The notes under the pieces are model-generated. The model was not told where the DNA came from. It made no database searches and saw nothing but the letters and a program-made list of their open reading frames with translations. A program made the translations under genes and the position numbers. From an uncultured Neobacillus sp. (lineage in GTDB: Bacteria; Bacillota; Bacilli; Bacillales; Cytobacillaceae), in the NCBI GenBank assembly GCA_964400595.1, contig CAYNUT010000005.1:547-64546 (forward strand): a stretch of 64,000 bases of DNA, given 5' to 3'. Below, one piece after another: positions 10,399 through 51,669 of the stretch. How positions within the stretch are numbered: the stretch's first letter is position 1; the number at the start of each line of letters is the position of its first letter.

Positions 10399-10549
10399 TC
10401 CTGACCACACTCCTTTCAGGCTACCCAAGATGTGATGTCATATACAAAATTTCTAGTTATTTCTATTTATTATAATTCATCTTCCTCCCCCATAATTCCT
10501 GCCTGCATCACTAATTTTGGCGAAAATTGTCTTTTCATAGGAGAAACTA

Positions 10550-10563: not shown

Positions 10564-10606
10564 GATTAACGAATTGCCTAATTTATCATAAAATTGTGAC
10601 GAAATG

Positions 10607-10620
10607 TGTAAACGTTTACC
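10607..10620. promoter_or_regulatory. cre-like (CcpA) site
   Basis: TGTAAACGTTTACC versus consensus TGWNANCGNTNWCA, one mismatch. Confidence 0.5.
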
Positions 10621-10666
10621 AAAGTTGTTAAATGTTTGCGCAAAAATAAAAAAGGGAGGAAGGAGT

Positions 10667-11260: not shown

Positions 11261-11298
11261 AACTTCAACATAGAACTATTGAGTAAGGATGATAAAAA

Positions 11299-11733: not shown

Positions 11734-11806
11734 CAGCAGTAAGACTGACAGAGAAATAGGGGAATAGGCTTTCCTGTTCCTTATCATCATAGCATTCGGA
11801 GAAACG

Positions 11807-12549: not shown

Positions 12550-13200
12550 TTATAGAGTTTTGACAAGTTCATTAAAGCTGCTTTTGCCGCGTTCGACAAG
12601 GCTTAAATGAGCGTTTCTTGCAAGCTTCACATATTCTTTTCTAACCTTTAACCATGCGTTCCTGCGTTCACGGGCAAAGGCAATATTGGATTCTGCATTT
12701 TTTTCGAAATTGTCTTCAAGCTGATCAATAACATTTACAATAGATTTTATTGGAGTTAACATAAGCTTCTCTAACTGACCGGATACTTCTTTCAGTTGCT
12801 TTTTAAGTTCTTCCCGATCATCAGAGATAGTAGCAGCAACTTCCTTATCTTCTTCTCTGCGGGTATTGATTTGATGCATTAATTCAGAAAACATTTCTTT
12901 GTTTGTTTTTTTGGATTGCTCATACAATTTTGAGATAGATTTCCGGTATTGCTTGTTAAACTTAATGACTTCCCTTACTGCGTTAAGATAAGCATCCTCC
13001 CTATTTTCCCGTAGCTGTTCTTCGCGTTCACGTGATTGCTCATACTGATCCCAAAATGTGTTGACAAATGAACCTTTGTTTACCGGTTCTTCAACTGCAG
13101 GAATGACTTTTTCTTCAACTGCCTTAATTACTTTTTCTTCAGCAGCTGGAATAACTTTTTCTTCAACAGCTGGAACCGTTTCATTTTTCTTCTGAGCCAT
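12550..13200 (-). CDS. phaP: PhaP-like phasin (PHA granule protein), copy A1
   Basis: Helical protein directly downstream of phaQ; FVNTFWDQY resembles the Bacillus PhaP N-terminus. Confidence 0.65.
   Translation of the reverse strand: MAQKKNETVPAVEEKVIPAAEEKVIKAVEEKVIPAVEEPVNKGSFVNTFWDQYEQSREREEQLRENREDAYLNAVREVIKFNKQYRKSISKLYEQSKKTNKEMFSELMHQINTRREEDKEVAATISDDREELKKQLKEVSGQLEKLMLTPIKSIVNVIDQLEDNFEKNAESNIAFARERRNAWLKVRKEYVKLARNAHLSLVERGKSSFNELVKTL
13087..13176 (-). repeat. Four imperfect 24-bp tandem repeats within phaP
   Basis: Encodes VPAVEEKV-IPAAEEKV-IKAVEEKV-IPAVEEPV. Confidence 0.9.
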
Positions 13201-13618
13201 CGTCTTTCCTCCTCCTACTATTATTTACTTTCTCTATTGAATCCTTCTTCTGAAAGGAAGGAATATAGAGCTCAAAGAAACTGGTATACATTTTAAAGAA
13301 TTGATCTAGCAGCGATTGATACGTTTCAAGTTGATTAGCATAGCCTTTTAGGTATGTAACACCAGCTTTTGTAATGGAATACCTTCTTTTGGCTGGACCA
13401 CTTCCAGTTGTATCCCACTCCGAAGATACGAGCTCGTCCTTTTCAAGCTGTCTTAACAATCTGTATAAATTCCCTTGGTCAAGCGTTCTAAACCCAAATG
13501 CCTCCAGCTTCTGGCTGAGTTCATATCCATGAAGAGAAACCTTGCTAAGAAGCAATAAAATAAATGGCAGCACAAAATTTTTAGATGGATTTACTGTTTG
13601 ATTGTCTTGGTTTACCAT
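13181..13618 (-). CDS. phaQ: PadR-family PHB-responsive repressor PhaQ
   Basis: KNFVLPFILLLL...LHGYEL...DQGNLYRLLRQLEK...WDTTGSGPAKRRYSIT; overlaps phaP. Confidence 0.88.
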   Translation of the reverse strand: MVNQDNQTVNPSKNFVLPFILLLLSKVSLHGYELSQKLEAFGFRTLDQGNLYRLLRQLEKDELVSSEWDTTGSGPAKRRYSITKAGVTYLKGYANQLETYQSLLDQFFKMYTSFFELYIPSFQKKDSIEKVNNSRRRKDDGSEEK

Positions 13619-13632
13619 ATCTTTATCACCTC

Positions 13633-13672
13633 ACCTATATGTATTTTACACCTATCAGTAATATTTTGTCAA
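13633..13672 (-). promoter_or_regulatory. SigA-type promoter with overlapping putative PhaQ operator
   Basis: TTGACA-N18-TAAAAT on the minus strand; imperfect palindrome TAGGTGTAAAATACATATA over the -10; same layout recurs at 42860-42898. Confidence 0.65.
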
Positions 13673-13764
13673 TATGTAAAATATATATAAATAAAAATCA
13701 CATTTAACCGTTTACATTTTACTAAAGTTGGTAATAAACTAAATAAAATGAAAGGTGGTGTAAA

Positions 13765-14547
13765 ATGGAAAAGACAAAAATGAGCCAAGCGGGGGTTCCT
13801 TTTTTGCATCTGGGCAGGGGTGAACCGCTGGTGCTGATTCATGGTTTAGGAGAAGTTAAGGAATCGTGGCAGAATCAATATGAATTAGCGGATCAATATG
13901 AATTGATTATTCCGGATTTGCGTGGTCATGGGGAATGTTCGAAAAAAGAAGGAATTACCATTCATAATTTCGCCTCTGATGTCATTGGATTATTGAAAGA
14001 GTTAGATATTGAGAACGCTCACATTCTGGGCCTATCTATGGGCGGGGCTGTTGCGCAGGAAATTTACCATCAAGCTCCCTCCATGGTCCGTTCCCTTTTG
14101 CTGATTAGTTCATTTCATTATTTGCCAAAAGAACTAAAGTGCTTGATCTTTAAAAAACATAAAGCACTGTTTGAAGAACTATCATTAAATGGAATTGAAG
14201 TGGAGTATATCTCACGGATGGCCCTTTATTCATGGAGAAAAGACACAGTGGAGGAATTCGGACACTTCTTTAAACCAAAGCTTGATATTTTTCTTGATTC
14301 TTTTAGGGCATGCCTTGAGGTCGATAATTTAGCATTGCTGCCAACAATTAAGGTCCCAACACTGATTATCGGAAGTCAATATGATTCCGTTTTACCAATC
14401 TGGATTCAAGCATGGATGCATAAGCTAATCCCAAATTCTCAATTTATCATCATGAGGAATACCGGTCATATTGCAAAACTGGAAGCAAAAGACCGGTTTA
14501 ACCGGCACCTCCGGTCATTCCTCAAACAGCAAAAATTTGCTGCCTAA
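13765..14547 (+). CDS. Alpha/beta hydrolase (candidate PHA depolymerase/esterase), paralog 1
   Basis: HGLG, PDLRGHG, GLSMGG nucleophile, QYD, TGH. Confidence 0.85.
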   Translation: MEKTKMSQAGVPFLHLGRGEPLVLIHGLGEVKESWQNQYELADQYELIIPDLRGHGECSKKEGITIHNFASDVIGLLKELDIENAHILGLSMGGAVAQEIYHQAPSMVRSLLLISSFHYLPKELKCLIFKKHKALFEELSLNGIEVEYISRMALYSWRKDTVEEFGHFFKPKLDIFLDSFRACLEVDNLALLPTIKVPTLIIGSQYDSVLPIWIQAWMHKLIPNSQFIIMRNTGHIAKLEAKDRFNRHLRSFLKQQKFAA

Positions 14548-14620
14548 TATATTATTTGCGGGAAGGATATGGGTGGGGGCCCTGACTTCCCGCTAATAAT
14601 TATATTCATTTGTCCTCAGT

Positions 14621-15703
14621 TTATATGAGAACTTCTTGAATTTCTTGTGAATGTGTGGATAGCCATGGGTCAACAATGCCGGCAAATTCTCCAGTCAACA
14701 TGATTGATACATGACCTCCCTCATATACTTCATACGTCTTATCCTCACTGGAAACAAGGTCCATTATTGGAAGCCCCTGCTTTTCTTTTATCAGTGTATC
14801 CTTTGTCAAAGCATACACGCACAACGGGCATTTAATATTCTTTAAATCGACTTTCCTGCCTTCTATCACAATTTCTCCTTTAATGAGTTTATTGTCCCTA
14901 TAAAGGTCATTAAAGAATTGTTTATACGCGGCACCGGCAAATGAGGCGGTATCTTTTGTCCATTTATCCATTCGGCGCCACTTTTCTACATATTTCTCAT
15001 CATGCGCACGCGTGATTAAATTGATGGAAGGAGCTCCATAAATCGGGTTAAGCATCCGAAACATTAAATAGAGAAAAACGGATGGCAGGGTTTCATATGC
15101 ATTTGCAAATCGGTCAAAACTCAGCTCCCCTTTTTGCAGTCCATCAAGCCAGGCTTGCGGAACAATGCCGATACTAAAATCAATGGGTGTTGCTGCGATC
15201 ACTAAATTTTTGATTGGCAAATCAGTAATCGAAGCAAGCATCGCTGCCAGTGTACCGCCAAGGCAGTAGCCCACTAAGGAAATTTCCTCTGCATTTGAAT
15301 GCCTTAGCGCCCGTTTTAATCCTTTTTCAAGATAATCAACTACATAATTATCCAGGGAAATATCGCTGTCTTCCAATCCTGGGGATCCCCAATCCAGCAG
15401 GTAAACATCATAGCCCCGTTCAGTCAGACCGCCGACCACGCTGCTCCCTTCCCCTACATCCAAAATGTACGCTTTATTCAAAAGAGAGTACACCATAAAG
15501 ACCGGGGTTTCGTATTTCTTTTCTTTAGCCGGATAGTACCATAGGCTGGACTTGTTCTTTCTCCAGACAAGCTGTCTAGGAGTAGGAATAATGTCAGGTT
15601 TCGGTTCCATGGCAATTTTATAAAGGTGATTCCAGCGTTTTGTTTCTTTTTCTAAATTTAACCGCGGGATAAAATTGGTTTTCAGTCGATTAGCGCTCAT
15701 CAT
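14621..15703 (-). CDS. phaC: Class III/IV PHA synthase catalytic subunit, copy 1
   Basis: TPRQLVWRKNK, YSLLNKAYILD, DVYLLDWG, GYCLGG (Cys), KD (Asp), GGHVS (His). Confidence 0.85.
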   Translation of the reverse strand: MMSANRLKTNFIPRLNLEKETKRWNHLYKIAMEPKPDIIPTPRQLVWRKNKSSLWYYPAKEKKYETPVFMVYSLLNKAYILDVGEGSSVVGGLTERGYDVYLLDWGSPGLEDSDISLDNYVVDYLEKGLKRALRHSNAEEISLVGYCLGGTLAAMLASITDLPIKNLVIAATPIDFSIGIVPQAWLDGLQKGELSFDRFANAYETLPSVFLYLMFRMLNPIYGAPSINLITRAHDEKYVEKWRRMDKWTKDTASFAGAAYKQFFNDLYRDNKLIKGEIVIEGRKVDLKNIKCPLCVYALTKDTLIKEKQGLPIMDLVSSEDKTYEVYEGGHVSIMLTGEFAGIVDPWLSTHSQEIQEVLI

Positions 15704-15721
15704 AAATTGGTCCCCCCTTTT

Positions 15722-16294
15722 TTATTTTTGTTTGTCTGATCCAGTGAGCACTAATTCTTTGTCCAGTTCTTTTTTGGACTCTCTTTTCTTTTCTTTTCCC
15801 ACTAGTCCTTTTAATTCAGAAATATCCTTTTTGATGTCCGCCAGCTGGGCCAGCTCCTTTTGAAGGCTGCTATTTATGCTTTTTGATGCGGCAAGCTCCT
15901 GGGTGTTTTTTTCCAGTTCACCCTTCAGCAAATTGACACTTTGCACTACTTCTTGAAGGAATTTTAGATTTTCTTTGTTTAGTTCCACCATTCTATCCTG
16001 AATAGTCCACAATTGCTCTTCTAAAAGATCTATTTTTTCTTCTGCTTGAATAGATAGCTTTGCAACCTTTGCAACATCCTTTTTTGTAGGGATATTCATT
16101 AGACCTGCAATAATCTCCTGATTTCTTCTTAAAAGCTCCATGTAACGGGAATGGGCATCAAGGCCTAAATTGACAGTTCGGACAAATGGCTTATTGTCTG
16201 CTGTCCTAAACAACAAATTAGTAAATTGTTTTTCCCATATTCCAGTGATCAGCTTAAATCCCTCAAACGGATCGTACGTTTTTTCATTGCTCAT
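15722..16294 (-). CDS. phaR: Class IV PHA synthase subunit PhaR, copy 1
   Basis: YDPF N-terminus and NIPTKKDVAKVAKLSIQAEEKIDLLEEQ motif; start placed at MSNEK. Confidence 0.8.
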   Translation of the reverse strand: MSNEKTYDPFEGFKLITGIWEKQFTNLLFRTADNKPFVRTVNLGLDAHSRYMELLRRNQEIIAGLMNIPTKKDVAKVAKLSIQAEEKIDLLEEQLWTIQDRMVELNKENLKFLQEVVQSVNLLKGELEKNTQELAASKSINSSLQKELAQLADIKKDISELKGLVGKEKKRESKKELDKELVLTGSDKQK

Positions 16295-16313
16295 TCTTGT
16301 TCGCTCCTTAGCA

Positions 16314-17060
16314 TTAAGATTTTGCATGTTCTTCTGTCTTTTCCATATATTTATTTAGTGGGAACATTAACGTCTTGATTTGTCTTGCAAACAGATTGAC
16401 AAAACCCCTTTGATTTTCATAGATGAGATTGCCTGCCTGTTTTACGGCATTGATATATTGCATCCTGCCTTTTTTCCGCAGTTCAATATATTGATTTATG
16501 ACTTCAAGATACTTGTTCATGACTTGATAGTTTGAAATGGCTTGACAAGGCTTGCTTAGGAGCGTCATGGTTCTCTGTTGAATTTGGTCAATCTGCGAGT
16601 TGATTTCTTCGTAGGACCGGATTGGGAAGAAGTGCTGCAGGGTGGTTGTCGACATTAAAAGTTCCTCCCGGGCAGTTCTCTCCCACTCAGCAAGCTCCTT
16701 GTTAAACTGCGCGGCAATGGCCTTCAGGTTTCCTTGATTCCTTTGGACACTTTCGGCAAAATTCTTCGAAGCATTTAAAAATACCTCATCACGATAATCA
16801 GATCGTTTTGCCCATTCGTCAATTTCACTAAATGCATGGCGCCAAAGCATGTCTAAGCTTGAAATCTGTTCCTCATTATCCACATTTTCAGCGATGGCTT
16901 CTTCTTCCGGTTTTACCTTAAGAACATGCTCTTCTAGGTCTTTTTTAACGGTTCCAGCCTTCTGTTTTTCTTCCACTGCTGCGGTGGTTTCTTCCTCCGC
17001 TTTCTTTCTCCTTGGCTTTGATTCCTTCACTACTTCTTTTTCATTCTCTTTTTCTGCCAT
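16314..17060 (-). CDS. Second PhaP-like helical protein, copy B1
   Basis: LDMLW...SYEEINSQIDQIQ resembles PhaP; paralog of 45536..46156. Confidence 0.6.
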   Translation of the reverse strand: MAEKENEKEVVKESKPRRKKAEEETTAAVEEKQKAGTVKKDLEEHVLKVKPEEEAIAENVDNEEQISSLDMLWRHAFSEIDEWAKRSDYRDEVFLNASKNFAESVQRNQGNLKAIAAQFNKELAEWERTAREELLMSTTTLQHFFPIRSYEEINSQIDQIQQRTMTLLSKPCQAISNYQVMNKYLEVINQYIELRKKGRMQYINAVKQAGNLIYENQRGFVNLFARQIKTLMFPLNKYMEKTEEHAKS

Positions 17061-17169
17061 CTTGATCCGCATCCTTTATAAAAATTTAAAAAACTTGAAA
17101 ACTATTTTTATGTTAGTAGAATCATGCAGATAATTCAGTATTACAAAGGCTGTCTCATTCAATGATTAT

Positions 17170-18801
17170 TTACACTTGGACTTTTTCTTCCTCTTTTCGC
17201 AGCATCCTTCTCAATAATTTGCCGACTGCTGATTTAGGTAGTTCATCTAGTATTTCAATTTCTTTAGGCACTTTATAAGGAGCCATATTAAGCTTTACAA
17301 AATCAATCAGTTCATTAGTTGAAACAATCGCACCTGGCTTTAATTTAACAAATGCCTTAACTGTTTCCCCCCGGTACTCATCAGGAACCCCGATAACAAT
17401 GGCTTCCTCAACCGCTTCATGCTGGTATAATACTTCTTCAATTTCACGAGGGTAAACATTGTAGCCGCTGGCGATAATGATATCTTTCTTGCGATCTAGT
17501 ATATAGAAGTAACCATCTTCATCCATTTTTGCAATATCACCCGTAAAGAGCCATCCGTCCCTCAAAACCATATCTGTATCACCCGGCCGTTTCCAATATC
17601 CCTTCATAACTTGAGGACCGCGCAGAATTAATTCACCTGCTTCCCCGACAGGCACATTCGCAAACCCATCTTCTGTTTCTCTGACTATTCTAGCCTCTGT
17701 CCCAGGTAAAGGAATACCGACACTTCCTAATTTGCGAGGGAGAAATGGTGGTGTTGAAATGGCTGATGGTGCTGTTTCCGAAAGCCCGTATCCGTCTGCT
17801 AATCTTACACCGACTCTTTTCTCAAACTTTTTAGCCTGTTCAACAGGAAGCGGTGCACCACCGCTGGATAAGTAAAAAATATCGCCGATATTACTTTCTT
17901 CTAAATGCGGATGACTATTTAATGCAAAAATCATGGTTGGTACTGCCGTGAGCTGGAATGGTTTCTCCCGTTTGATTAACTCCAATACCTCATTTACATC
18001 AAATCGGGGCAAAATCAGCTGGTTACATCCAATTCTAATGGCCGAAAGCGCATTACATGACAGTCCATAAACATGAAACATAGGCAAAACACTGACAATT
18101 TTGAAGTTCTCCGGCTTTTCATCAACAGCATTATAGGTGAAATCACAAACCTGAATAATATTGGCCAAAAGATTATAATGTGTAAGCATGACTCCCTTGG
18201 AAACCCCTGTTGTTCCACCGGTATACTGTAGCAGTGCGACATCTTCCATTATGTCGATTGGAATTTCCGGGATAATATTATCATGGGTAAGAAAGTCTTC
18301 GAAATAAAGATCGCCTTCAGCGAGCTCCGCTCGATTGCCGCCAAAACCAACTACAATGACTTTTTTCAACGATGTTTTTGCCTGTACCTGTTTTACTCTA
18401 GGGTATAAGGCTTCAAAAACAACCATGTATTCTGATTCAGAATCATTAAGAACATATTCAATTTCTCTTTCCACATACATCGGATTGACTTGTACAGCGA
18501 TACCGCCTAAACGAAATGATGCGAATAAACTAAATATGTAATGCGGGGAATTAGGAAGCATGATGGCGATCCGATCACCCTTTTTAAATCCAATCCGATA
18601 TAACGATGCGGCGAGCCATTCCGAAACCATTCTTGTTTCCCTATAGCTCCATGATCTGCCGTAAAAGGTGAGAGCAGGTTTTTCATTATGGATGTTTGCT
18701 GCCTGCCTTAATAGGTCAAACAGAGATTCGTACTCAATCGAAATGTTTTCACTAATCCTCGAATCATAAAACTTTAACCATGGTTTCTTCTGATAATCCA
18801 A
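17170..18801 (-). CDS. Long-chain-fatty-acid-CoA ligase-type acyl-CoA synthetase, paralog 1
   Basis: QYTGGTTGVSKG, GYGLSE, TGD, SGYNVYPREIEE, LPKSAVGK. Confidence 0.93.
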   Translation of the reverse strand: MDYQKKPWLKFYDSRISENISIEYESLFDLLRQAANIHNEKPALTFYGRSWSYRETRMVSEWLAASLYRIGFKKGDRIAIMLPNSPHYIFSLFASFRLGGIAVQVNPMYVEREIEYVLNDSESEYMVVFEALYPRVKQVQAKTSLKKVIVVGFGGNRAELAEGDLYFEDFLTHDNIIPEIPIDIMEDVALLQYTGGTTGVSKGVMLTHYNLLANIIQVCDFTYNAVDEKPENFKIVSVLPMFHVYGLSCNALSAIRIGCNQLILPRFDVNEVLELIKREKPFQLTAVPTMIFALNSHPHLEESNIGDIFYLSSGGAPLPVEQAKKFEKRVGVRLADGYGLSETAPSAISTPPFLPRKLGSVGIPLPGTEARIVRETEDGFANVPVGEAGELILRGPQVMKGYWKRPGDTDMVLRDGWLFTGDIAKMDEDGYFYILDRKKDIIIASGYNVYPREIEEVLYQHEAVEEAIVIGVPDEYRGETVKAFVKLKPGAIVSTNELIDFVKLNMAPYKVPKEIEILDELPKSAVGKLLRRMLRKEEEKVQV

Positions 18802-18913
18802 AATTTTCCCCTCCTTAATTTTCCGCCAATTTCATCTAGAGGATGCAACCATTTTACTTGTTTTGAAGTTGGAAGAAGTTGTAACCACTTAAATTATTGG
18901 TTTAAAAAAAGGT

Positions 18914-18955
18914 TTTGTAAACGCGCCGATTTCGACACAATTCACCAGTTTCTAC
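18914..18955 (-). promoter_or_regulatory. Conserved upstream block of the acyl-CoA ligases (copy 1)
   Basis: TTTGTAAAC-N9-TCGACACAATTC; includes TGTCGAA (Spo0A-box match) on the minus strand. Confidence 0.6.
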
Positions 18956-19197
18956 GAAACCGAGAGGAGGAGAGGACCTTATATGACAAATTATAACAAA
19001 ATCTCACGGTATTTGACGGAAATTTTTATATATTATGACAAATACTAATTATTGTTCACAAAATTTTCGAAAATTTCCATTTCTAATGCTCAAAAGACAA
19101 GTTATAGCACAAAAGGATTTTCATTTAAACCTGCTATATACAGTAAAAATCAATTTGAAATCAGCCCCAGAAAACTGGGACTGATTTTCACCTTTTA

Positions 19198-21801
19198 CTA
19201 GAGACCTTTATAGGCTTGTAGATAAATTGCTGCAAGTTCAGTTACCAGCGGCATTTTTGGATTTGGAATCGTATCTTGATCATGGAAAGCGTGTTCTGCC
19301 AGAACAGGTACTTTTCTTTCAAATTCAGTTTTATCAATCCCTGCTGCTTCGATACTCATTGGCATATCCAATTCTTTAGCAAGTTTTATGACGGCCATAA
19401 TTAAGCTTTCCACACCCTCCTCAGTTGTGCCAGCCGGCAGTCCGAGCATTTTGGCAATTTCTGCATAGCGCTTGTCTGCGATGAAATGCTCATATTTAGG
19501 GAAGGTCATAAATTTGTTTGGCTTCGTGGCATTAAAACGAATAACGTATGGCAGCATAATGGCGTTTGCCCGGCCGTGCGGAATATTAAATTCACCACCA
19601 AGTACATGCGCCAAGCTATGGTTAATGCCAAGGAATGCATTGTTGAATGCCATGCCCGCAATTGTGGCGGCATTGTGCATCTTTTCGCGGGCAAGCTCAT
19701 CGCTTCCATCCCGGTAAGCTCTTGGCAAATATTCAAAGACCAATTGAATAGCTTTTAATGCTAAGCCATCGGTATAGTCATTCGCCAGAACAGAGACATA
19801 CGCTTCAATTGCATGTGTCAAAACATCCATTCCGGTATCAGCAGTAACATGACGCGGAACTGTCATGACAAACTGCGGATCAACAATGGCAACATCTGGT
19901 GTCAGCTGCAGGTCAACCAAAGGATACTTCATATTTGCCTTTTTATCAGAAATAACCGCGGCAGACGTAACCTCTGACCCTGTACCAGAAGTAGTCGGTA
20001 TCGTTACGAGTATTGCTTTATTGCGAAGTGCAGGGAACTTTACAACTCTTTTACTTGGGTCAAAGAATTTCTGTGTCAAGCTATGAAAATCCGTGTCAGG
20101 ATGCTCATAGAACAGCCACATGGCTTTAGCAGCATCCATGACTGAACCACCGCCAAGGGCAATAATGACATCCGGCTGAAACTTTCTCATCCTTTCTGCT
20201 CCAGCCATGACAGTATCAATACTTGGTTCCGTTTCAATTTCAGCGAATATTTCCACTTGAATGGTGCTTGGATTCTTTTTCAAATAATACTGTACCTTGT
20301 CGACAAAGCCATTTTTAACTGCGCTGCTGCTTGTGACGATAAATGCTTTAGAAATTCCAGGAATGGCAGCGAGTGTTTGAATAGAATTTTTCTCAAAGAA
20401 AACCTGTGATGGCACTTTAAACCACTGGGTCATTGTTCTTCTTTTTGCTACTTTTTTAATATTGATCAAATTAGCGGCTCCAACATTTTGTGACACAGAG
20501 TTCCCCCCATAAGTCCCGCAGCCGATTGTTAAGGACGGTAAAGATGTGTTGTAAATATCACCGATTGCCCCGTGGGTTGATGGCGTGTTTACAATGATGC
20601 GCCCGGCTCTCATTCTTAACGCAAAAGTATCTATAACATCCTGGTTAGTTGTGTGGATTGCAGCTGAGTGACCGAGTCCGCCGTATTCAAGTGTTTGTTC
20701 AGCAATATCAAAACCTTCTTCAAGACTATTAACCTTATAGCAGGCCAAAATTGGGCTCAATTTTTCACATGATAACGGATATTGCGGACCTACCCCTTCT
20801 ATTTCCGCAATTAATATCTTTGTATTAACCGGCACATTTAATCCTGCCATTTTTGCAATCATTGGGGCATTTAAGCCAACAATCAACGGATTAAGGCCGC
20901 CGTTTTTGGGATCAATGGCAATTTGTTCAACCATTTTCCGTTCTTCTTCATTAAGGAAATAACAGTTATTATCAATTAATTCCTGTCTTACTTCGTCATA
21001 AATCACCTGGTCAATAATAACCGCTTGCTCTGATGCGCAAATCATGCCGTTATCGAACGTTTTCGATAAAATCAAATCATTGACGGCTCGTTTGATATTA
21101 GCGGATTTTTCTATATAACAGGGTACATTCCCTGCTCCGACTCCAAGGGCAGGTTTTCCCGAACTATAAGCTGCTGTTACCAGGTTTGGTCCTCCTGTTG
21201 CTAGAATGAGGGACACCTTTGGATGCTTCATTAACACCTGGAATGCGTCATGGGAAGGTTTTTCAATCCACTGAATGCAATTTTCTGGTGCTCCTGCCTT
21301 GATTGCTGCATCTCTTAGCAGGACGGCTGTTGCCGAGCAGCATTTTTGCGCGTACTTTGGAAATGCAAAAACAATTGGGTTTCTCGTTTTTAGAGAAATC
21401 AAAGATTTAAAGATTACGGTTGAAGTAGGGTTAGTAATTGGGATGACACCGGCAATGACACCAACCGGCTCTGCCATCTCGACCATGCCCTCATCCTCGT
21501 TTATATTAATAACTCCAACGGTTTTCATATCCCTGATGTTGTTATAAATCATTTCTGTAGCAAACATATTTTTGAAGACTTTGTCTTCATATACCCCTCT
21601 TCTTGTTTCTTCCACCGCGAGTTTTGCAAGGTCCTTATGATTTTCGAGCGCGGATAGTGCCACTTGTTTTACAATTTCATCAACCATTTCCTGTGTGAAG
21701 CTTCGGAACTCCACCAGTGCCTTGGCTCCATTATTCGCTAAAACATCAATCATCTCTAAGACATTTTGCTTATCTTGTAAAACTTTTTCTTTTACAGCCA
21801 T
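19198..21801 (-). CDS. adhE: Bifunctional aldehyde-CoA/alcohol dehydrogenase
   Basis: N-terminal ALDH domain (PITNPTST, DNGMICASEQ) fused to an Fe-ADH domain (GGGSVMDAAK, TTSGTGSE, HSLAH). Confidence 0.95.
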   Translation of the reverse strand: MAVKEKVLQDKQNVLEMIDVLANNGAKALVEFRSFTQEMVDEIVKQVALSALENHKDLAKLAVEETRRGVYEDKVFKNMFATEMIYNNIRDMKTVGVININEDEGMVEMAEPVGVIAGVIPITNPTSTVIFKSLISLKTRNPIVFAFPKYAQKCCSATAVLLRDAAIKAGAPENCIQWIEKPSHDAFQVLMKHPKVSLILATGGPNLVTAAYSSGKPALGVGAGNVPCYIEKSANIKRAVNDLILSKTFDNGMICASEQAVIIDQVIYDEVRQELIDNNCYFLNEEERKMVEQIAIDPKNGGLNPLIVGLNAPMIAKMAGLNVPVNTKILIAEIEGVGPQYPLSCEKLSPILACYKVNSLEEGFDIAEQTLEYGGLGHSAAIHTTNQDVIDTFALRMRAGRIIVNTPSTHGAIGDIYNTSLPSLTIGCGTYGGNSVSQNVGAANLINIKKVAKRRTMTQWFKVPSQVFFEKNSIQTLAAIPGISKAFIVTSSSAVKNGFVDKVQYYLKKNPSTIQVEIFAEIETEPSIDTVMAGAERMRKFQPDVIIALGGGSVMDAAKAMWLFYEHPDTDFHSLTQKFFDPSKRVVKFPALRNKAILVTIPTTSGTGSEVTSAAVISDKKANMKYPLVDLQLTPDVAIVDPQFVMTVPRHVTADTGMDVLTHAIEAYVSVLANDYTDGLALKAIQLVFEYLPRAYRDGSDELAREKMHNAATIAGMAFNNAFLGINHSLAHVLGGEFNIPHGRANAIMLPYVIRFNATKPNKFMTFPKYEHFIADKRYAEIAKMLGLPAGTTEEGVESLIMAVIKLAKELDMPMSIEAAGIDKTEFERKVPVLAEHAFHDQDTIPNPKMPLVTELAAIYLQAYKGL

Positions 21802-21957: not shown

Positions 21958-21977
21958 ATGAATGAATAACCATTCAT
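21958..21977. promoter_or_regulatory. FadR(YsiA)-type box upstream of adhE
   Basis: ATGAATGAATAACCATTCAT versus the Bacillus consensus WTGAATGAMTANTCATTCAN. Confidence 0.7.
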
Positions 21978-22062
21978 TTTTAAAAGTTCACAAAATGTTC
22001 ACAATTAAACATTGAGAAGCTTTTGAAAATATGACCTATAAAAAAAGACACAGTCTAGGTAA

Positions 22063-42232: not shown

Positions 42233-42787
42233 TTATTTTGTGCGAACAAGGACTTTTGCGCTTTCTTCGAGGCGGCCGACTAATTTTTTGTTAGTTTCGC
42301 GGGCTGCTTTTACGTAACCGTCAGTTACGTTTTGCCATCCGTTTCGACGCTCTCTTGAATAGTTGATATAGTTTTCACTGCTTTCAACAAGGTTTTCTTC
42401 AAATCGCTGAATCAGGTCAAGACCTGCTGCAACAGGAGCCATCGCTAACTGTTCAAGACGTGTTGATACTTCATCAAATTGTTCTTTCAATTCAGGTTTA
42501 ACAGCTTCTCCTTCTTCACGATCTTTTGCAAGTCTGTCTGCAACCGTTTTTGTTAATTCACTGCCTGTTTGTCTATAGGTTTGGAAAAGGCCGGCAAGCG
42601 ATCCTCTAAATTCTTGATTGAAATTTACCATTTCTTTTACGCCATTCAGGAAAGCATCTTCTCTTCTTTCACGGCGCTTTCTAGCCTGTACTAACGATTG
42701 TTCATATTGATTCCAAAAAGTATCTACCAACATATCCACTACTCCTTCTTGGACAGCTTGTCCACTTTTCTTTGCTGCAGTGCTCAT
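42233..42787 (-). CDS. phaP: PhaP-like phasin, copy A2
   Basis: LVDTFWNQYEQS...RREDAFLN matches 12550..13200. Confidence 0.65.
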   Translation of the reverse strand: MSTAAKKSGQAVQEGVVDMLVDTFWNQYEQSLVQARKRRERREDAFLNGVKEMVNFNQEFRGSLAGLFQTYRQTGSELTKTVADRLAKDREEGEAVKPELKEQFDEVSTRLEQLAMAPVAAGLDLIQRFEENLVESSENYINYSRERRNGWQNVTDGYVKAARETNKKLVGRLEESAKVLVRTK

Positions 42788-42898: not shown

Positions 42899-42998
42899 TA
42901 CCAATTATATAATAAAATAACCAGAATTTTATAAATGTTTATACCTTATAAATATTGGAAACATAAAATACTATAAATAACCATTGGAGGTATGTAAA

Positions 42999-43781
42999 TT
43001 GAGTGAACACTTCAATATTTGTTATGGAATTCCTTATTTACGCCTAGGTGCTGGTGAACCATTAGTTTTTATTCACGGCCTAGGAGAAGTGAAAGAAGGC
43101 TGGGCAAACCAGTTTGAATTTGCCGATCAGTATGACCTGATTATTCCTGATTTACGCGGGCACGGAGAGTATGAATCACCACCTGGTGAAATATCCATTC
43201 ATAATTTTGCGAAAGACGTCATTACCCTTCTAAAAGGGCTGGAAATTGAAAGCGCACACATTTGCGGGTTGTCAATGGGCGGGATGGTAGCCCAGGAAAT
43301 TTATCGTCAGGCTCCAGAAATGTGCCTTTCCTTAATGCTCGTCAGTACCTTTCACTTTGCGCCAAAGCGCCTAGGGAAACTTTATCTTAAGCTCCGGCAA
43401 ACTACTGTAGAAAATAAGTTACCTGATGTTCTGAGAGAAAAAGCGGCAAAACTTTGCCTTTATTCATGGTCCAGGGAAAATTTCGAAAGCTTTTATCAAT
43501 TTTACCGGCCGAATAGCGAATTTTATTTCCAATCAATGGAAGCGTGTCTTAAAGTCAACAACTTAACATTACTCCCTCAAATTAAGGTGCCAACCCTCAT
43601 CATTGGCGGGCAATATGATACGGTTATTCCTGTCTGGGTTCAATTATTGATGCATAAACAAATCCGTCACTCAGAGTTTGTTATTTTTAAAAATACAGGT
43701 CATATCGCAAAGTTAGAGGCAAAGGAAGAATTCAATGAAGTTCTCCGCAATTTTTTAAACAAACACAAAAGGGCAAGTTAG
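42999..43781 (+). CDS. Alpha/beta hydrolase, paralog 2
   Basis: GEPLVFIHGLGEVKEGW, GLSMGG, QYD, TGHIAKLE; TTG start after GGAGG. Confidence 0.85.
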   Translation: MSEHFNICYGIPYLRLGAGEPLVFIHGLGEVKEGWANQFEFADQYDLIIPDLRGHGEYESPPGEISIHNFAKDVITLLKGLEIESAHICGLSMGGMVAQEIYRQAPEMCLSLMLVSTFHFAPKRLGKLYLKLRQTTVENKLPDVLREKAAKLCLYSWSRENFESFYQFYRPNSEFYFQSMEACLKVNNLTLLPQIKVPTLIIGGQYDTVIPVWVQLLMHKQIRHSEFVIFKNTGHIAKLEAKEEFNEVLRNFLNKHKRAS

Positions 43782-43861: not shown

Positions 43862-44929
43862 CTAAAGTGGATTGGAACGGCTGGAAGCCCATTGGTCCAC
43901 AATTTTCGCAAATATACCAGATAAGGCAAGGCTGACATGTCCAGCTTCCACAGTGATATAAGTTTTATCCTCACTTGAAGCCAAGTCCATTATTGGCTTG
44001 CTCTGCTCTTCTAAAATAAGGTTGTCTTTTGAACCTGAAACAACGAACAAATTAGCTTCAATATTTTTTAAATCAGCCTTTTTATTCCCAAGCATAAATT
44101 CTCCTTTAACCAGTTTGTTCTCTTTAAAAAGATCATTGGCTAATTGTTTATATGCCTCACCTGCAAATGGAACCTGGTCAAGTGTCCATTTATTCATCCG
44201 GCGCCATTTATCAACATACCGATGGTCGTGCGCGCGATTTAATAGCATTGTATAATTTGTAAAATAAATTGGTGCTCCGATTGCCCTGAACATACCTTCC
44301 ACAAGCATCGGCGGGACTACACCATATACATCGATTAAGTGGTCAATGATAAAATCGCCGCTTCTCATGCCTTCTGCCCATTTATCCGGTCCGATAAACG
44401 GCTCGAAATCTATCGGAACAGTCGCGACAATTAAATTTTTAATCGGCTCTTCGGCAATCGATGCGTAGATGGACGCAATTGTGCCGCCTAAGCAATATCC
44501 GACCAAAGTAATTTCTTCAGCTCCCGAATGGCGGATTGCCCGTTTTACTGCTGTCCGTAAATATTTCTCAATATAAGTATCAAGCCCCATCTTCTTGTCT
44601 TCATAGCCTGGGGAACCCCAATCCAAAAGATACACCTCATAGCCCATGTTTGTTAGTCCTTCAATCACACTGGCGTTCGGGGCAATATCTAGAATGTACG
44701 GTTTATTAAATAATGAGTAAACGAAAAATAAGGGAATTTCAAATCTCCTCTGTTTTGCGGGATAATGCCATAGAACCGATTTATTTTTTCTCCAAACTTC
44801 ATTTCTCGGAGTATGGCCAACCTTCGGCTCTGGCCCGCTTAAAGCCTTAAACAAATGCGTCCAGCGGTTCTTCTCTTTTTCAATATCCAAATCAGGAATT
44901 AAATTCACTAAAGGTGTTTCAGCCGCCAC
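43862..44929 (-). CDS. phaC: Class III/IV PHA synthase catalytic subunit, copy 2
   Basis: TPRNEVWRKNK, NKPYILD, YLLDWG, GYCLGG, KD, AGHVS. Confidence 0.85.
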   Translation of the reverse strand: MAAETPLVNLIPDLDIEKEKNRWTHLFKALSGPEPKVGHTPRNEVWRKNKSVLWHYPAKQRRFEIPLFFVYSLFNKPYILDIAPNASVIEGLTNMGYEVYLLDWGSPGYEDKKMGLDTYIEKYLRTAVKRAIRHSGAEEITLVGYCLGGTIASIYASIAEEPIKNLIVATVPIDFEPFIGPDKWAEGMRSGDFIIDHLIDVYGVVPPMLVEGMFRAIGAPIYFTNYTMLLNRAHDHRYVDKWRRMNKWTLDQVPFAGEAYKQLANDLFKENKLVKGEFMLGNKKADLKNIEANLFVVSGSKDNLILEEQSKPIMDLASSEDKTYITVEAGHVSLALSGIFAKIVDQWASSRSNPL

Positions 44930-44950
44930 GGTTCTAACCTCCACCTTCTA

Positions 44951-45517
44951 TTATTTCGCAGGGCTGGATCCGGCCAATACCGGTTCAGCCTCAATGTTAT
45001 TTTTAATAAGGCCTTTAATTTCGTCCATTTCTTCTTTGAAATTGCTTAATTTCAACAGCTCAAATTTCATTTCCTGAAGCTCTGCATGTAAATCCTTTGA
45101 ATCTGCAAGCTCTTTTTTCGTTTTTACAAGTTCAGTTTTCAGTTGTTTTGTCAGCTTCATTATCTCTTTCGATACTTCCACAACACTTTCAATCTCTTTG
45201 CTTTGTGACGTAACAGAATCCCGCAGCTCCCAAATCTGCTCTTCAAGAGCTTCGATTTTTTCTTCCGCCTGAATGGTTAAGGACGCTACGTTCGTCACAT
45301 CAGATTTTGTTGGCATGTTTAAGACGCTGGCAAGTGCCTCTTGATTTTTTTTAAATACCTCTAGATACCGAGAATGGATTTCCGTCCCAATATTGGACAT
45401 CTTGACAAATTCCTTATTGTTCGTCCAAAGATAAATGAAATCATTAATCTGTTTTTCCCACAATAAACTCAGCTTGTGAAAAGATTCATACGGATCATAT
45501 GGTTTTTTGCCTGACAT
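44951..45517 (-). CDS. phaR: PhaR synthase subunit, copy 2
   Basis: YDPY...NMPTKSDVTNVASLTIQAEEKIEALEEQ. Confidence 0.82.
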   Translation of the reverse strand: MSGKKPYDPYESFHKLSLLWEKQINDFIYLWTNNKEFVKMSNIGTEIHSRYLEVFKKNQEALASVLNMPTKSDVTNVASLTIQAEEKIEALEEQIWELRDSVTSQSKEIESVVEVSKEIMKLTKQLKTELVKTKKELADSKDLHAELQEMKFELLKLSNFKEEMDEIKGLIKNNIEAEPVLAGSSPAK

Positions 45518-45535
45518 TCGTTACACCCCTATTGA

Positions 45536-46156
45536 TTATGATTTCGTTTGCTCTGTAACGCTTTTCATATATTTTTGAAACGGCATCATAGCAGATTTTA
45601 CTTGTTTGGTAAAAAGATTCATTAAGACCTTTTGATTTTCATACAACACATTGCTTGTTTTCTTCACACTCTCAATATATTTTTCCCTGGCTTTTTTTCT
45701 ATAAGCAATATATTGCTCCACTGTTTCCAAATACTTATCAAGTGCCTGGCCGCCTGTTAAGGAGCGAACCGGTGTCAATAATAGATTGGTAGTTTTCTTT
45801 TGAATATCATCCACTACTTGATTGATTTCCTCATAAGACTTGATAGGGAATAAGTGCTGAAATGCCGTGGTCGTCATAAGAAGTTCTTCTCTGGCCGTTT
45901 TCTCCCATTCTTTAAGCTCCCTGCTGAATTGCTCAGATACCTGCTTAATATTTTCTTGATTCCGTTTCACCCGATCAGCATAGTTTTTAACAGATTCCAA
46001 GAAAAGCTCATCGCGTTTGTTATACCGTTCTACCCACCTGTCCAACTCATCAAATCCAAGCTTCCAAACCATTTCCAAACTAGATAACTGCTCATTAGCA
46101 TCACCGGCTGCTGCTTCTGTAGTTTCATTTGTTAATACTTCTTCCTTTTCTGCCAT
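45536..46156 (-). CDS. Second PhaP-like helical protein, copy B2
   Basis: WEKTAREELLMTTT...FPIKSYEEIN nearly identical to the block in 16314..17060. Confidence 0.6.
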   Translation of the reverse strand: MAEKEEVLTNETTEAAAGDANEQLSSLEMVWKLGFDELDRWVERYNKRDELFLESVKNYADRVKRNQENIKQVSEQFSRELKEWEKTAREELLMTTTAFQHLFPIKSYEEINQVVDDIQKKTTNLLLTPVRSLTGGQALDKYLETVEQYIAYRKKAREKYIESVKKTSNVLYENQKVLMNLFTKQVKSAMMPFQKYMKSVTEQTKS

Positions 46157-46159
46157 TTC

Positions 46160-46621
46160 CTACTCCCCCTCCTTAGCGGATTCCATTTCAAAAAATTGCT
46201 GTAAATCCGCTAATTCTTTTTCCAAAGTTTTTATTTTGCTATCACGGATGTCTTTCATTTCAGCTTTGTAAACAGAGCAACATTCTTTCCATAGTTTCCG
46301 CACTTCTATTAATCGTAAGAGATTCTCGCGCTGAATTTTGCTGATTTCATAAATCGTTTCATCAAGGAAATCTAACCGGTCCTCTAAATCTACTAGTCTT
46401 ACAGAAATCTCGGCATATTCATCCTTATTCGCAAAATCTAATCGCTTTAACCACCTGGTTGTTAACCTTCTGTGAATTCTTGCCCATTTTAAATGCGCAT
46501 TCATAGCCCGTCCAAATGCTTTTGTAAAGGTCCGGCAATTGGTCCAGGCATGTATGCTTTTATTCATTTCCGCTTCAAGTTTTTTGTAGTTTGCATCTGA
46601 ATCATGATGTTTGGATTCCAT
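46160..46621 (-). CDS. Divergent PhaR-like coiled-coil protein
   Basis: LDFANKDEYAEISVRLVDLEDRLDFLDE parallels the PhaR PTKxDVAxV...EEKIDxLEE motif. Confidence 0.55.
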   Translation of the reverse strand: MESKHHDSDANYKKLEAEMNKSIHAWTNCRTFTKAFGRAMNAHLKWARIHRRLTTRWLKRLDFANKDEYAEISVRLVDLEDRLDFLDETIYEISKIQRENLLRLIEVRKLWKECCSVYKAEMKDIRDSKIKTLEKELADLQQFFEMESAKEGE

Positions 46622-46635
46622 ATAAATCCCCTTCA

Positions 46636-46649
46636 ACCAACCGGTCGGT
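46636..46649. promoter_or_regulatory. Palindrome ACCAACCGGTCGGT, candidate TetR-type operator
   Basis: 12 of 14 positions palindromic, just upstream of the module-2 operon RBS. Confidence 0.5.
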
Positions 46650-46789: not shown

Positions 46790-47569
46790 TTATTGAACCC
46801 CTGCAGTAGTTCCACCGTCAACTACAAGCACATGTCCAAAAACATAATCTGAAGCGGCTGAGGCTAGGAATAATGCCGGCCCCTTCATATCGTCATTGGA
46901 ACCAAAACGGCCAGCAGGTGTCCGTTCTAGAATTTTTTCTCCGGAATAATCCAAGATCGTTTTTGCCATTTTTGTCGGAAAAAATCCAGGTGCAATCGCA
47001 TTAACATGAACATTGTATGGAGCAAGTTTAACAGCTAAATCCTTTGTAAAGGCAATAACTGCACCTTTGCTTGCCGTATAGCCAATCGCATCCATGACTA
47101 ATGGATCCTGACCGCCCATGCCGGCGATGGAAGCAATGTTAATTATTTTTCCTGATCGCTGTTCTTTCATTATTTTTCCGACTGCCTGCGAAAATAAGAA
47201 GACAGCCTTCAAGTTAATATCCATGACCTTATCCCATTTATCCGCTGGCATTTCTAGAGCAGGGGCTCCCCAGCTTGTCCCGCTGTTGTTTACTAAAATA
47301 TCAATTTGGCCAAATTCCTTCAGTGGTCCATCGACCACATTCTGAATGTCGAGAGGATTGGACACATCACATTTAAAGGCTATGGCCCGAACACCTCTTT
47401 CCTTAAGTGCATCGCAGAATTGCTGGCAGGCCTCAACATTTCTTGAACAAACGACCACATTAGCTCCCGCCTCGGCATAAGAAATCGCAATTTGCTGTCC
47501 TAATCCCCTGCCGCCGCCTGTGACAATGGCTGTTTTCCCTTTTAAACTGAATAAATCTTGAATATTCAT
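46790..47569 (-). CDS. Classical SDR oxidoreductase
   Basis: TGGGRGLG, NNSG, YTASK, IAPGFFPT. Confidence 0.9.
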   Translation of the reverse strand: MNIQDLFSLKGKTAIVTGGGRGLGQQIAISYAEAGANVVVCSRNVEACQQFCDALKERGVRAIAFKCDVSNPLDIQNVVDGPLKEFGQIDILVNNSGTSWGAPALEMPADKWDKVMDINLKAVFLFSQAVGKIMKEQRSGKIINIASIAGMGGQDPLVMDAIGYTASKGAVIAFTKDLAVKLAPYNVHVNAIAPGFFPTKMAKTILDYSGEKILERTPAGRFGSNDDMKGPALFLASAASDYVFGHVLVVDGGTTAGVQ

Positions 47570-47588: not shown

Positions 47589-49223
47589 TTAAGCTCTCAC
47601 TTTTAATTTCTCTTGATCTCTTAATACTCTTCTAAGTAATTTTCCGACAGATGACTTTGGCAGCTCAGGAAGAATTTCCACTTCCTTTGGAGCCTTATAT
47701 GGAGCAAGGTTCTCTTTACCGAATTGTTTAATTTCCTCTTCTGTAATCGAAAAACCGGTCTTTAGCTTAACGTAGACCTTAACGGTTTCCCCGCGGTAAG
47801 GGTCTGGAACTCCGACGGCAAGCGCTTCCTCGACTGCTTCATGCTGGTAGAGCACTTCCTCAATCTCGCTGGGATAAACGTTGTAGCCGCTTGCGATAAT
47901 CATATCCTTTTTCCGATCAACAATATAAAAATAACCGTCTTCATCCATTCTTGCGATATCGCCCGTAAACAGCCAGCCATCTTTTAAAACAGCCGCTGTT
48001 TCTTCTGGACGGTTCCAGTAGCCTTTCATGACCTGCGGCCCTTTTACAATTAATTCCCCTGCCTCACCCACAGGTGCATCGACATATCCATCATCTGTCT
48101 CAAGAACAATTTTGACGATCGTACTTTGAACAGGAATTCCAATACTACCGTATTTTCTTGGGACAAATGGGGGATTAAATATAACCGTTGGAGATGCCTC
48201 AGACAGACCATAACCATCAAGGAGCATAGCACCTGTTCTTCTTTCGAACACCTTTGCAGCCTCCACCGGCAGCGGTGCGCCGCCGCAGCTTATGTAATAA
48301 AGGTCATCAAACCCGCACTCTTCGAGCCCTGTCTGGCTGTTTAAGGCGAAAAACATCGTCGGAACACCAGACAGTTGGAATGGTTTTTCGCGCTTAACCG
48401 TTTCCATCACTTCCTGCGGATCAAAGCGCGGCAGGATAATTTGATTGGCTCCTTCCCTAATTCCGCAAAGGGCCACACTTGAGAGCCCGTATACATGGAA
48501 AAATGGCAAAACACTAATCATTTTAAAATCTTCCGGTTTGTTATTACATGCTTTGTAGGCAAAATCACAAACCATATTGAAATTTGATAAAAGATTCGTA
48601 TGTGTCAGCATGACTCCCTTGGAGAGACCAGTGGTTCCACCTGTATATTGCAAGAGGGCGACATCCTTATCACGGTCAATCTCTACTTCTGGGAGGTTAA
48701 CCTCAACATGAAGAAATTCATCGAAATACTGATCCCCATCAGCAAGTTCAAACCTTTCGCCACCAAGGTTTACAACGAGCAATTTTTTTAAGGAAGTACT
48801 TGGCTGCACCTTTTTCACTCTTGGATAGAGCGCATCGAGAACAACCATATATTCAGAGCCTGAATCATTTAATACATGCTCGATTTCTCGTTCCACATAC
48901 ATTGGATTAACTTGGACAGCAATTCCACCTAAGCGAAAAACCGCGAATAGTGTGAAAATGTATTGCGGGGAATTGGGAAGAATAATGGCTAATCGATCAC
49001 CTTTAGTAAATCCAGCATTATGTAGAGCTGAGGCCAACCGATCTGTCATTGCTTTTGCAGCATTAAAACTAATTACATTGCCATAAAAGGTAAAGGCAGG
49101 CTTGTCACCGAACCGCCTAACAGCGTCTTGTAAAAAATCGTACAAGGAAGGATGTTCCATACTTACATTCTCATCAATTCTCGGGTCATAAAACTTCAAC
49201 CATGGCTTTTGCTGGTAAACCAT
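47589..49223 (-). CDS. Acyl-CoA synthetase (LCFA-CoA ligase type), paralog 2
   Basis: QYTGGTTGLSKG, GYGLSE, LPKSSVGK; start at MVYQQKPW. Confidence 0.93.
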   Translation of the reverse strand: MVYQQKPWLKFYDPRIDENVSMEHPSLYDFLQDAVRRFGDKPAFTFYGNVISFNAAKAMTDRLASALHNAGFTKGDRLAIILPNSPQYIFTLFAVFRLGGIAVQVNPMYVEREIEHVLNDSGSEYMVVLDALYPRVKKVQPSTSLKKLLVVNLGGERFELADGDQYFDEFLHVEVNLPEVEIDRDKDVALLQYTGGTTGLSKGVMLTHTNLLSNFNMVCDFAYKACNNKPEDFKMISVLPFFHVYGLSSVALCGIREGANQIILPRFDPQEVMETVKREKPFQLSGVPTMFFALNSQTGLEECGFDDLYYISCGGAPLPVEAAKVFERRTGAMLLDGYGLSEASPTVIFNPPFVPRKYGSIGIPVQSTIVKIVLETDDGYVDAPVGEAGELIVKGPQVMKGYWNRPEETAAVLKDGWLFTGDIARMDEDGYFYIVDRKKDMIIASGYNVYPSEIEEVLYQHEAVEEALAVGVPDPYRGETVKVYVKLKTGFSITEEEIKQFGKENLAPYKAPKEVEILPELPKSSVGKLLRRVLRDQEKLKVRA

Positions 49224-49362
49224 AAACTTACGATGCCTCCTCAGGATCTTTGTTATCAATATTCCTCCCGTTTAATCCCACTGCTGTAAATTCTTCGAAG
49301 TCATCATCTATTACATCAATTAGAATATTAATATAATTATGATTATTGTGGTAAAAATCCAA

Positions 49363-49404
49363 TTTGTAAACCTTACTTTCTCGACACAATTCCACAATTT
49401 ACCT
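49363..49404 (-). promoter_or_regulatory. Conserved upstream block of the acyl-CoA ligases (copy 2)
   Basis: TTTGTAAAC-N9-TCGACACAATTCCAC. Confidence 0.6.
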
Positions 49405-49619
49405 CTAATTTCCTTTATTAAAACATAGGAATCTCAACTAAAATCTAGTGTGTACAAAATGCGAATCATTGAGAAAATAGGCAGATTTTGTCGGAAAATA
49501 TTTTAAGTGTTCACAAAATTCCGTTTTGAAATAATGGGATTTTATTTCACTTTTAACTTTTTTCTACCATTTATAATAAAAAGAATTCAAAAATAATATA
49601 TCTCTATAAAAATAAAGAC

Positions 49620-49710
49620 GGTGTCAGGCACCACAAAAAGACATTTTACCCATTTTTGTCCGTGTGCAGTGGACATTCTATTATATAGCTCACATTGCAT
49701 GGACATTTTT
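49620..49710. repeat. REP-like repeat, long variant
   Basis: GGTGTCAGGCACCACAAAAAGACATTTT followed by repeated GGACA/TGTCC. Confidence 0.7.
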
Positions 49711-49773
49711 AGTTCTTTTGGGTTAGTGGCATTCATATAATCTAGTATTATTCTGAACAAAGGAGTTGTCTTC

Positions 49774-50577: not shown

Positions 50578-50715
50578 TGGTGTAAAAAGCCTGGCCACAA
50601 TGTGGATGGGCTTTTTTCTAACCAGTCTTTTTTACTATTCATAATTTTTAAAATATTTTAACTTTACAAAACATGCTAATTGGATTTAATATAATATCAA
50701 ATAGGAGGGATCAAT

Positions 50716-51498: not shown

Positions 51499-51669
51499 AA
51501 ATAATATATCACACCCCTAAAATTATGCAAAAATGCCCGGCCTCCACAGTCCGGGCATTTCTATAAATCTCCCATCCTACTATTGTATGCTTGCACTCGT
51601 TCCCCCATCAAATACGAGTACATGACCGAACATAATTAGAGGCATCTGATGCTGAGAACAGTTCAGGTC

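Follow-up and report, generated by a model that had tools for sequence, protein, structure and literature searches.

In a 64,000-nt stretch of DNA from an uncultured Neobacillus sp. (GCA_964400595.1, contig CAYNUT010000005.1, positions 547-64,546; hereafter the window), a module of eight genes is arranged around phaC and phaR, which by sequence and predicted fold encode a two-subunit polyhydroxyalkanoate (PHA) synthase of class IV type. The PhaC protein groups not with the canonical class IV enzymes but with a second, Bacillales-wide clade without the reductase gene phaB at its loci, and matches to the operator of FadR (YsiA) are located before the adhE gene of the module and before a sister phaC of related genomes. 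With moderate confidence, we propose as the most likely reading that the module serves as a store for hydroxyacyl-CoA coming from beta-oxidation, rather than from sugar, at times when long-chain acyl-CoA would relieve the repression by FadR.

The genes of the module were assigned by Pfam and NCBIfam family scans with the family cut-offs. An earlier note on this DNA had given the order as phaP-phaQ, a divergent hydrolase gene, a convergent phaC-phaR-phasin-like group, an acyl-CoA ligase gene and adhE, and all eight genes were found at these places. The features are as follows.

12550..13200, minus strand: phaP, Bacillus-type phasin (PF09602, 107.5 bits)
13181..13618, minus strand: phaQ, PadR-family repressor responsive to polyhydroxybutyrate (PHB) (TIGR02719, 143 bits; cut-off 139)
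13765..14547, plus strand: hydA, serine alpha/beta hydrolase (S91, D207, H235), beside phaC in 31 of 31 type-1 loci (those arranged like the window module)
14548..14620: hairpin in the convergent gap (-21.2 kcal/mol), likely a terminator between hydA and phaC
14621..15703, minus strand: phaC of the second class IV clade, very probably the B. bataviensis type (TIGR01836, 281.7 bits; cut-off 365.3; trees; predicted model)
15722..16327, minus strand: phaR, partner subunit (TIGR02132, 39.5 bits, below cut-off; profile match to canonical PhaR)
16314..17072, minus strand: orfX, second phasin-family protein (start may be 17060; profile match to canonical PhaP)
17170..18801, minus strand: acyl-CoA ligase of an uncharacterised subfamily (PF00501/PF13193; the top NCBIfam matches are long-chain ligases, all below cut-off)
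18893..18921, minus strand: promoter-like site of sigma-70 type before the ligase gene (10/12 match)
19054..19068, minus strand: second shared motif, before the ligase gene (second copy at 21986-22000, before adhE)
19158..19187, minus strand: hairpin directly 3' of adhE (-21.5 kcal/mol, without a clean U-tract), possibly a partial terminator
19198..21801, minus strand: adhE, non-Rex paralogue (PRK13805, 1338 bits, over cut-off)
21959..21976: FadR (YsiA) operator match, 158 bp before adhE

In promoter and terminator scans of the region, the number of sites was at chance level.

PhaC is a protein of about 40 kDa with an alpha/beta-hydrolase fold and a Cys-Asp-His triad, and thus fits a class IV PHA synthase. 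The triad recognized in the earlier note, located here at C147, D302 and H331, was invariant in 31 canonical and 98 second-clade rows, and the predicted model, with a predicted local distance difference test (pLDDT) score of 89, gave PHA synthases as the best structural matches. The score of 281.7 bits against TIGR01836 is below the canonical level; against the class II model TIGR01839, with its cut-off of 855, 41 bits were obtained. The phaR and phaC genes are separated by 18 bp with no reductase gene between them, in agreement with the earlier description, and profile comparison of PhaR with canonical PhaR gave 99.3% with an E-value of 4.7e-20. The designation of orfX as phasin-like was also borne out: no direct Pfam match was obtained for OrfX, its hhalign comparison with canonical PhaP gave 97% (E 7.7e-11) for 155 columns over the phasin domain, and its Atlas neighbours carry PF09602. 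In PhaP itself, the N-terminus (13060-13200) holds four imperfect copies of a short motif about eight residues long. The product of hydA is likely a granule esterase or depolymerase. It carries the serine triad and scores 74 bits against the model of intracellular short-chain-length (scl) PHA depolymerases NF050089, below the cut-off of 300.

A PhaC tree was constructed with 130 rows, comprising 41 of the 48 genomes with the second type, 42 named Neobacillus-type loci, and canonical references including the P. megaterium locus and a B. cereus-type locus; a Sinorhizobium outgroup (L148) and the split PhaC of one locus (L043) were left out. Trees were made in quick mode with support by the Shimodaira-Hasegawa-like approximate likelihood ratio test (SH-aLRT) only, and the 130-row tree had one archaeal outgroup. 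The canonical clade (31 rows) and the second clade (98 rows) were separated with SH-aLRT values of 97 and 99, and the window PhaC, the position of which the earlier note had suggested checking by phylogeny, was placed in the latter. This protein is 35-38% identical to PhaC of P. megaterium, the B. cereus group and the canonical locus of its own genome. Across 301 genomes of the order, the TIGR01836 scores were bimodal: 45 genomes scored over the cut-off (428-534 bits), a full-length match at 195-310 bits marked the second type in 48, and four genomes carry both types.

Marked difference between the two clades was observed for phaB, which was found nearby (loci span 4-10 kb) in none of the 98 second-clade rows versus 27 of the 31 canonical rows; the 98 rows are kin and not independent, Neobacillus being oversampled. 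The second clade was present in 17 of 18 congeners and canonical phaC in 11, and the seven genomes without canonical phaC still keep the second clade. For all five such genomes tested, the best PhaB match was 44-48% identical and MaoC proteins were present. A stand-alone phaB in phaB-less genomes was considered and rejected, the candidates lying in fabG or other ligase-short-chain reductase (SDR) clusters. The absence of phaB noted before thus extends to relatives that keep the module without any phaB orthologue found. In the canonical clade, phaRC without phaB but with an orfX homologue was detected between carboxyltransferase and thiolase genes at three loci (L077-L079).

The search for FadR sites began from a FadR operator pattern, and two or fewer mismatches were allowed in the genome search. 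The sequence TGAATGAATAACCATTCA at 21959-21976 shares 16 of 18 bases with the B. halodurans operator in the accessible text of PMC5397183, where FadR is described as responding to C14-C20 acyl-CoA. Seven FadR-type sites were found in the 3.86-Mb genome, three of which precede fadN-fadA-fadE, fadR-fadB-etfBA and a ligase-hydratase pair. With a matrix built from these three sites alone, 38 of 40 adhE rows scored 14 or higher versus 11 for the 99th percentile of the background, and the two rows missed were one truncated locus and one over-long open reading frame (ORF) call. The operator match was present before all 42 distinct (de-duplicated) module AdhEs. It was also located directly before the sister phaR-phaC (nine loci) or phaC (two loci) in each of the 11 loci fetched, of 18 listed. 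In place of this operator, the other adhE of the genome, 70% identical, has a Rex-type box without mismatch, and in the tree each AdhE type has a branch of its own. As judged from its conservation and its rarity elsewhere, the operator match before adhE represents a putative FadR-regulon promoter, giving support to the link with fatty-acid metabolism that the earlier note had proposed.

In another family, one locus (L149) has an adhE whose product belongs to the branch of the module AdhE; a FadR-like site precedes it, and phaRC is not its neighbour. The replacement of F by A614, which could have widened the alcohol pocket of AdhE, was considered and rejected, being present in only 6 of 48 rows. 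The second shared motif was detected upstream of 17 of 26 ligase genes and of 16 of 43 adhE genes, versus 2 of 1073 unlabelled genes, the pattern having been drawn from the same loci.

The genome carries three PhaCs: the module PhaC, a 54% identical paralogue in a second module within the window, and a 36% identical canonical one on contig C87. The search for a separate phaRBC, suggested earlier, was therefore positive, and the window locus is not the only pha type in the genome; the earlier note was right in pointing to a real module, and overlooked both this phaRBC and the paralogous module at 42233-53310. The canonical phaR-phaB-phaC locus (L001, 1898-4282) encodes a short PhaR of 134 residues and has no adjacent phaP or phaQ. 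As no other phaQ-level match was found in the genome, the PhaP and PhaQ of the window module may serve the C87 locus. Module 2 consists of phasins, two PhaR-like genes, an SDR, two ligases and three hydrolases besides its phaC, in the following arrangement.

42233..42787, minus strand: phaP paralogue
42984..43781, plus strand: hydA paralogue (58%)
43862..44944, minus strand: phaC of the second clade (54% to the first; TIGR01836, 287.8 bits; tree)
44951..46636, minus strand: phaR, orfX paralogue and orfY, a second PhaR-like gene (profile match of OrfY to PhaR, 99.3%)
46790..47569, minus strand: PRK08213-family SDR (NF006070, 363 bits; cut-off 279)
47589..53310: two ligase paralogues (65-67%) flanking two further alpha/beta hydrolases

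The module-2 SDR is a candidate 3-oxoacyl-CoA reductase and is 63% identical to an SDR in the alkane/fatty-acyl cluster of the same genome. Its identification as RhlG was considered and rejected, as the score was 149 bits for RhlG (2b4q) versus 188 for FabG structures. The alkane/fatty-acyl cluster, on contig C1 (15500-28000; L172), contains R2lox and a MaoC pair, and for genes that adjoin second-clade phaRC, the nearest paralogues that this genome has are the aldehyde dehydrogenase (ALDH), alcohol dehydrogenase (ADH) and SDR genes of this cluster. Module 2 adjoins a fatty-acid desaturase gene and a DesKR-like pair (39250-42052).

The 42 closest named loci were divided into 31 of type 1 and 11 of type 3, with a derived copy. 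Within the type-1 modules, hydA was found in 31, orfX in 29 and the ligase gene in 17. In the derived copy, genes for a ligase, an aldehyde dehydrogenase, an iron alcohol dehydrogenase, an alkyl sulfatase and a major facilitator superfamily (MFS) transporter precede orfX-phaR-phaC. This operon-like run possibly forms a route from alkyl sulfates to polymer, and its dehydrogenases are 65% and 55% identical to the ones in the R2lox alkane cluster. For the whole second clade, a ligase was found near 44 of the 98 rows, adhE near 33, a reductase near 31 and a cytochrome P450 near 16, and any of the four near 93, while neither ligases nor PRK08213-type reductases were found near the 31 canonical rows. 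The order PRK08213-type reductase and then phaR-phaC was observed in several more distant families.

About 12 congener loci have no phaC after adhE, and in the nine that were fetched (L152-L160) the module is otherwise intact. Because these modules keep phaR, orfX, hydA, phaQ and phaP, the products of these genes would work with a PhaC encoded elsewhere, and the genomes concerned carry the sister phaC at another place. Simple relocation of phaC was rejected as the origin of the sister gene, which is a paralogue and coexists with the module phaC in some genomes. The module-type adhE was present in at least 68 of 88 congeners. In most relatives ppc and adhE are adjacent; in the window, genes for a flavodoxin, a Crp/Fnr regulator, a P-type ATPase and a metal chaperone (22063-25360) are located between them. 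On the other side of the module, DUF6230 and DUF6114 genes and a third ORF (10604-12394, plus strand) are located next to a divergent LuxR-type regulator gene (9214-10428, minus strand), and this group adjoins 13 of the 31 type-1 modules. By eye, the DUF6230 protein is like the peptides of alkane-induced Geobacillus P16 and P21 in the accessible part of PMC2676291.

The mode of action that we favor would start from long-chain acyl-CoA, which would derepress adhE and, with read-through, the ligase-orfX-phaR-phaC genes. The ligase would then activate fatty acids or hydroxy acids, among them the monomer set free by HydA, the enzyme that would mobilise the polymer. The (R)-3-hydroxyacyl-CoA could be supplied in trans by MaoC/PhaJ-type hydratases, FabG or the module-2 SDR, and AdhE would link alcohols and acyl-CoA and balance NADH. 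PhaRC would finally make a 3-hydroxyalkanoate polymer, the chain lengths of which would follow the fatty acid supplied.

Several observations weigh against this proposal. The C87 PhaB of the same genome could feed the enzyme, and class IV enzymes are described as short-chain specific in the accessible text of PMC6403647. The ligase gene is absent from 14 of the 31 type-1 modules, and an obligatory ligase, as in the interpretation of the earlier note, is therefore not supported. Proximity of adhE is confined to 33 of the 98 rows, those of the type-1 branch in Neobacillus, and adhE persists in all nine fetched loci where phaC was lost. As had been stated, adhE is on the same strand as the ligase gene and in the expected order, but the two are separated by 396 bp holding the -21.5 kcal/mol hairpin and the promoter-like site. 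Since this gap splits adhE from the rest, FadR control of the window phaC is no more than putative; at nine other loci the gap from adhE to the next gene is 68 bp or less, ORF starts having been called mechanically. In the loci scanned with the matrix, no FadR site was found before phaR (0 of 57 and 0 of 38), orfX (0 of 56) or SDR genes (0 of 30). There is thus no sign of FadR control for module 2 or for the branches with SDR or P450 genes, and FadR control of the whole second clade was rejected.

A broader and distinctly more tentative proposal is that the second clade might be a Bacillales-wide lipid-fed system, under FadR in Neobacillus, while in other hosts a reductase, a P450 or a route leading from alkyl sulfates to acyl-CoA would supply it. 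The products of such a system could be polyesters, either of medium or long chain length or built from units other than 3-hydroxy acids, or else wax-like esters, and alternative PhaRs and phasins would take part.

As an alternative to the beta-oxidation-fed store, the module could start from acetyl-CoA and yield common PHB or PHBV. FabG or the PhaB encoded on C87 would then provide 3HB-CoA in trans, and adhE, the ligase and the FadR site would be mere neighbours. The canonical phaRBC in the genome, the presence of FabG in all genomes checked, the dispensability of the ligase, and the ppc-adhE synteny, constant in the genus, are all in line with this explanation, as is the PHA that Mizuno and co-workers reportedly obtained with the new subgroup in E. 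coli. We nevertheless regard it as unlikely, because it leaves unexplained both the FadR sites directly before the stand-alone sister phaC in 11 of 11 loci and the repeated pairing of the clade with three ligase types, SDR and P450 across genera.

Still less probable, in our estimation, is a product other than poly(3-hydroxyalkanoate), such as another hydroxy fatty acid polyester, alcohol-capped oligomers, or a wax-like ester formed by Cys-bound acyl transfer to an alcohol supplied by AdhE. The ligase, AdhE, acyltransferase, phasins and esterase together would make the parts list of an ester store, and many residues invariant in the canonical PhaC clade differ in the second clade. In one supported branch, a cytochrome P450 flanks phaRC in 14 of 14 loci, in three arrangements; these P450s are 50-96% identical among themselves, with 7wzl as the best PDB match, but this genome has no close P450 (best 28%). 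PhaC also aligns, with E 4.5e-15, to the N-terminal portion of the acyl-CoA synthetase model PRK07868, the family of which we take to be that of mycobacterial Rv1683. The accessible text of PMC3503283 lists Rv1683 as a lipase and acyl-CoA synthase tied to lipid bodies, and that of PMC6403647 states that class IV synthases perform alcoholysis. Against these points, PhaC retains every catalytic residue of a PHA synthase and still has PhaR as its partner, and the best structural matches remain PHA synthases. No PhaC-ligase fusion, with both domains of the PRK07868 type in one chain, was found among 3448 longer candidates, which is weak evidence; the two are separate genes here.

The version of the earlier note, in which short hydroxy acids, lactone products or diols (3HB, 4HB, 5HV) are imported and converted by the ligase without a detour through PhaB or beta-oxidation, is very improbable: it agrees with the ligases near 44 of 98 rows, with a transporter inside type-3 and type-4 operons, and with hydrolases scoring best against the PcaD lactonase model, but the ligase resembles long-chain ligases, FadR responds to C14-C20 acyl-CoA (PMC5397183, accessible text), this module has no transporter, and lactone hydrolysis as the monomer source rests only on a PcaD match far below cut-off (108 bits; cut-off 256).

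The usual view of class IV synthases is that of short-chain PHB enzymes that receive their monomer from PhaB. Among the 301 genomes, the second clade is about as common as the canonical one (48 versus 45) and usually occurs alone. As the FadR sites point to long-chain fatty acids as the inducing condition, the question of the native product is directly testable, and feeding with fatty acids would matter if the polymer is not plain PHB. If the proposal is true, it would change the reading of second-clade genes, now mostly annotated as plain alpha/beta hydrolases, and bioplastics free of endotoxin would profit from a fatty-acid-fed or longer-chain polyester synthase that works in Gram-positive hosts.

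With the canonical class IV locus (phaP-phaQ divergent from phaR-phaB-phaC; P. megaterium and the B. cereus group), the window module has in common the triad and fold of PhaC, PhaR, and homologues of PhaP and PhaQ. It differs in the lack of phaB, in gene order, and in the presence of an extra phasin, the hydrolase, the ligase and adhE. The same module in the same order is found in N. bataviensis LMG 21833, with a PhaC 73% identical to that of the window. All three PhaCs of this strain score below the TIGR01836 cut-off and belong to the second clade, its best PhaB match is 46% identical, and no canonical phaC or phaB was found there. With only second-clade PhaCs in LMG 21833, the B. bataviensis type would belong to the second clade, if this strain was the one used. 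For a new subgroup, Mizuno and co-workers reportedly described in 2017 an operon of different structure and the production of PHA in E. coli. That paper (Mizuno et al. 2017; PMID 27609142) is cited in two reference lists for 'a novel subgroup of class IV' genes, and the accessible text of the review PMC6403647 names the B. cereus, B. megaterium and B. bataviensis types of class IV, the last at 33% homology. Global identities of the second clade to the other subgroups were 35-40%, as against the 33% of the review; matching the 'C147' of that review to one gene was dropped, start sites being too uncertain. The second clade is thus very probably the published B. bataviensis-type class IV subgroup, and the module, put forward earlier as the best candidate for an undescribed system in the window, probably belongs to a known, little-studied subgroup.

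Searches of the openly accessible literature gave nothing on the neighbours, regulation or native product of the module, and the accessible parts of PMC12455824, bioRxiv 693432 and PMC11767280 hold nothing on the second clade. No mention of the FadR operator before the module adhE and the sister phaC was found in these searches, none of which joined FadR with phaC. With the Bacillus FadR (YsiA) regulon the module has the matching operator in common, a motif also present at the operons for beta-oxidation in this genome, but the five B. subtilis FadR operons in the accessible text of PMC5397183 include neither adhE nor a PHA synthase. The GK2769-GK2782 cluster of Geobacillus kaustophilus resembles the C1 cluster in R2lox, ALDH, Fe-ADH, ligase, thiolase, a MaoC pair, SDRs and acyl-CoA dehydrogenase, and no PHA synthase is named for it in the accessible part of PMC10867098.

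By analogy only, the proposed beta-oxidation-fed store, with its synthase, depolymerase and re-activating ligase, would be similar to the class II PHA cycle of Pseudomonas, which operates with a synthase of a different class. The Pseudomonas cycle consists of PhaC, PhaZ and a granule-bound acyl-CoA synthetase.

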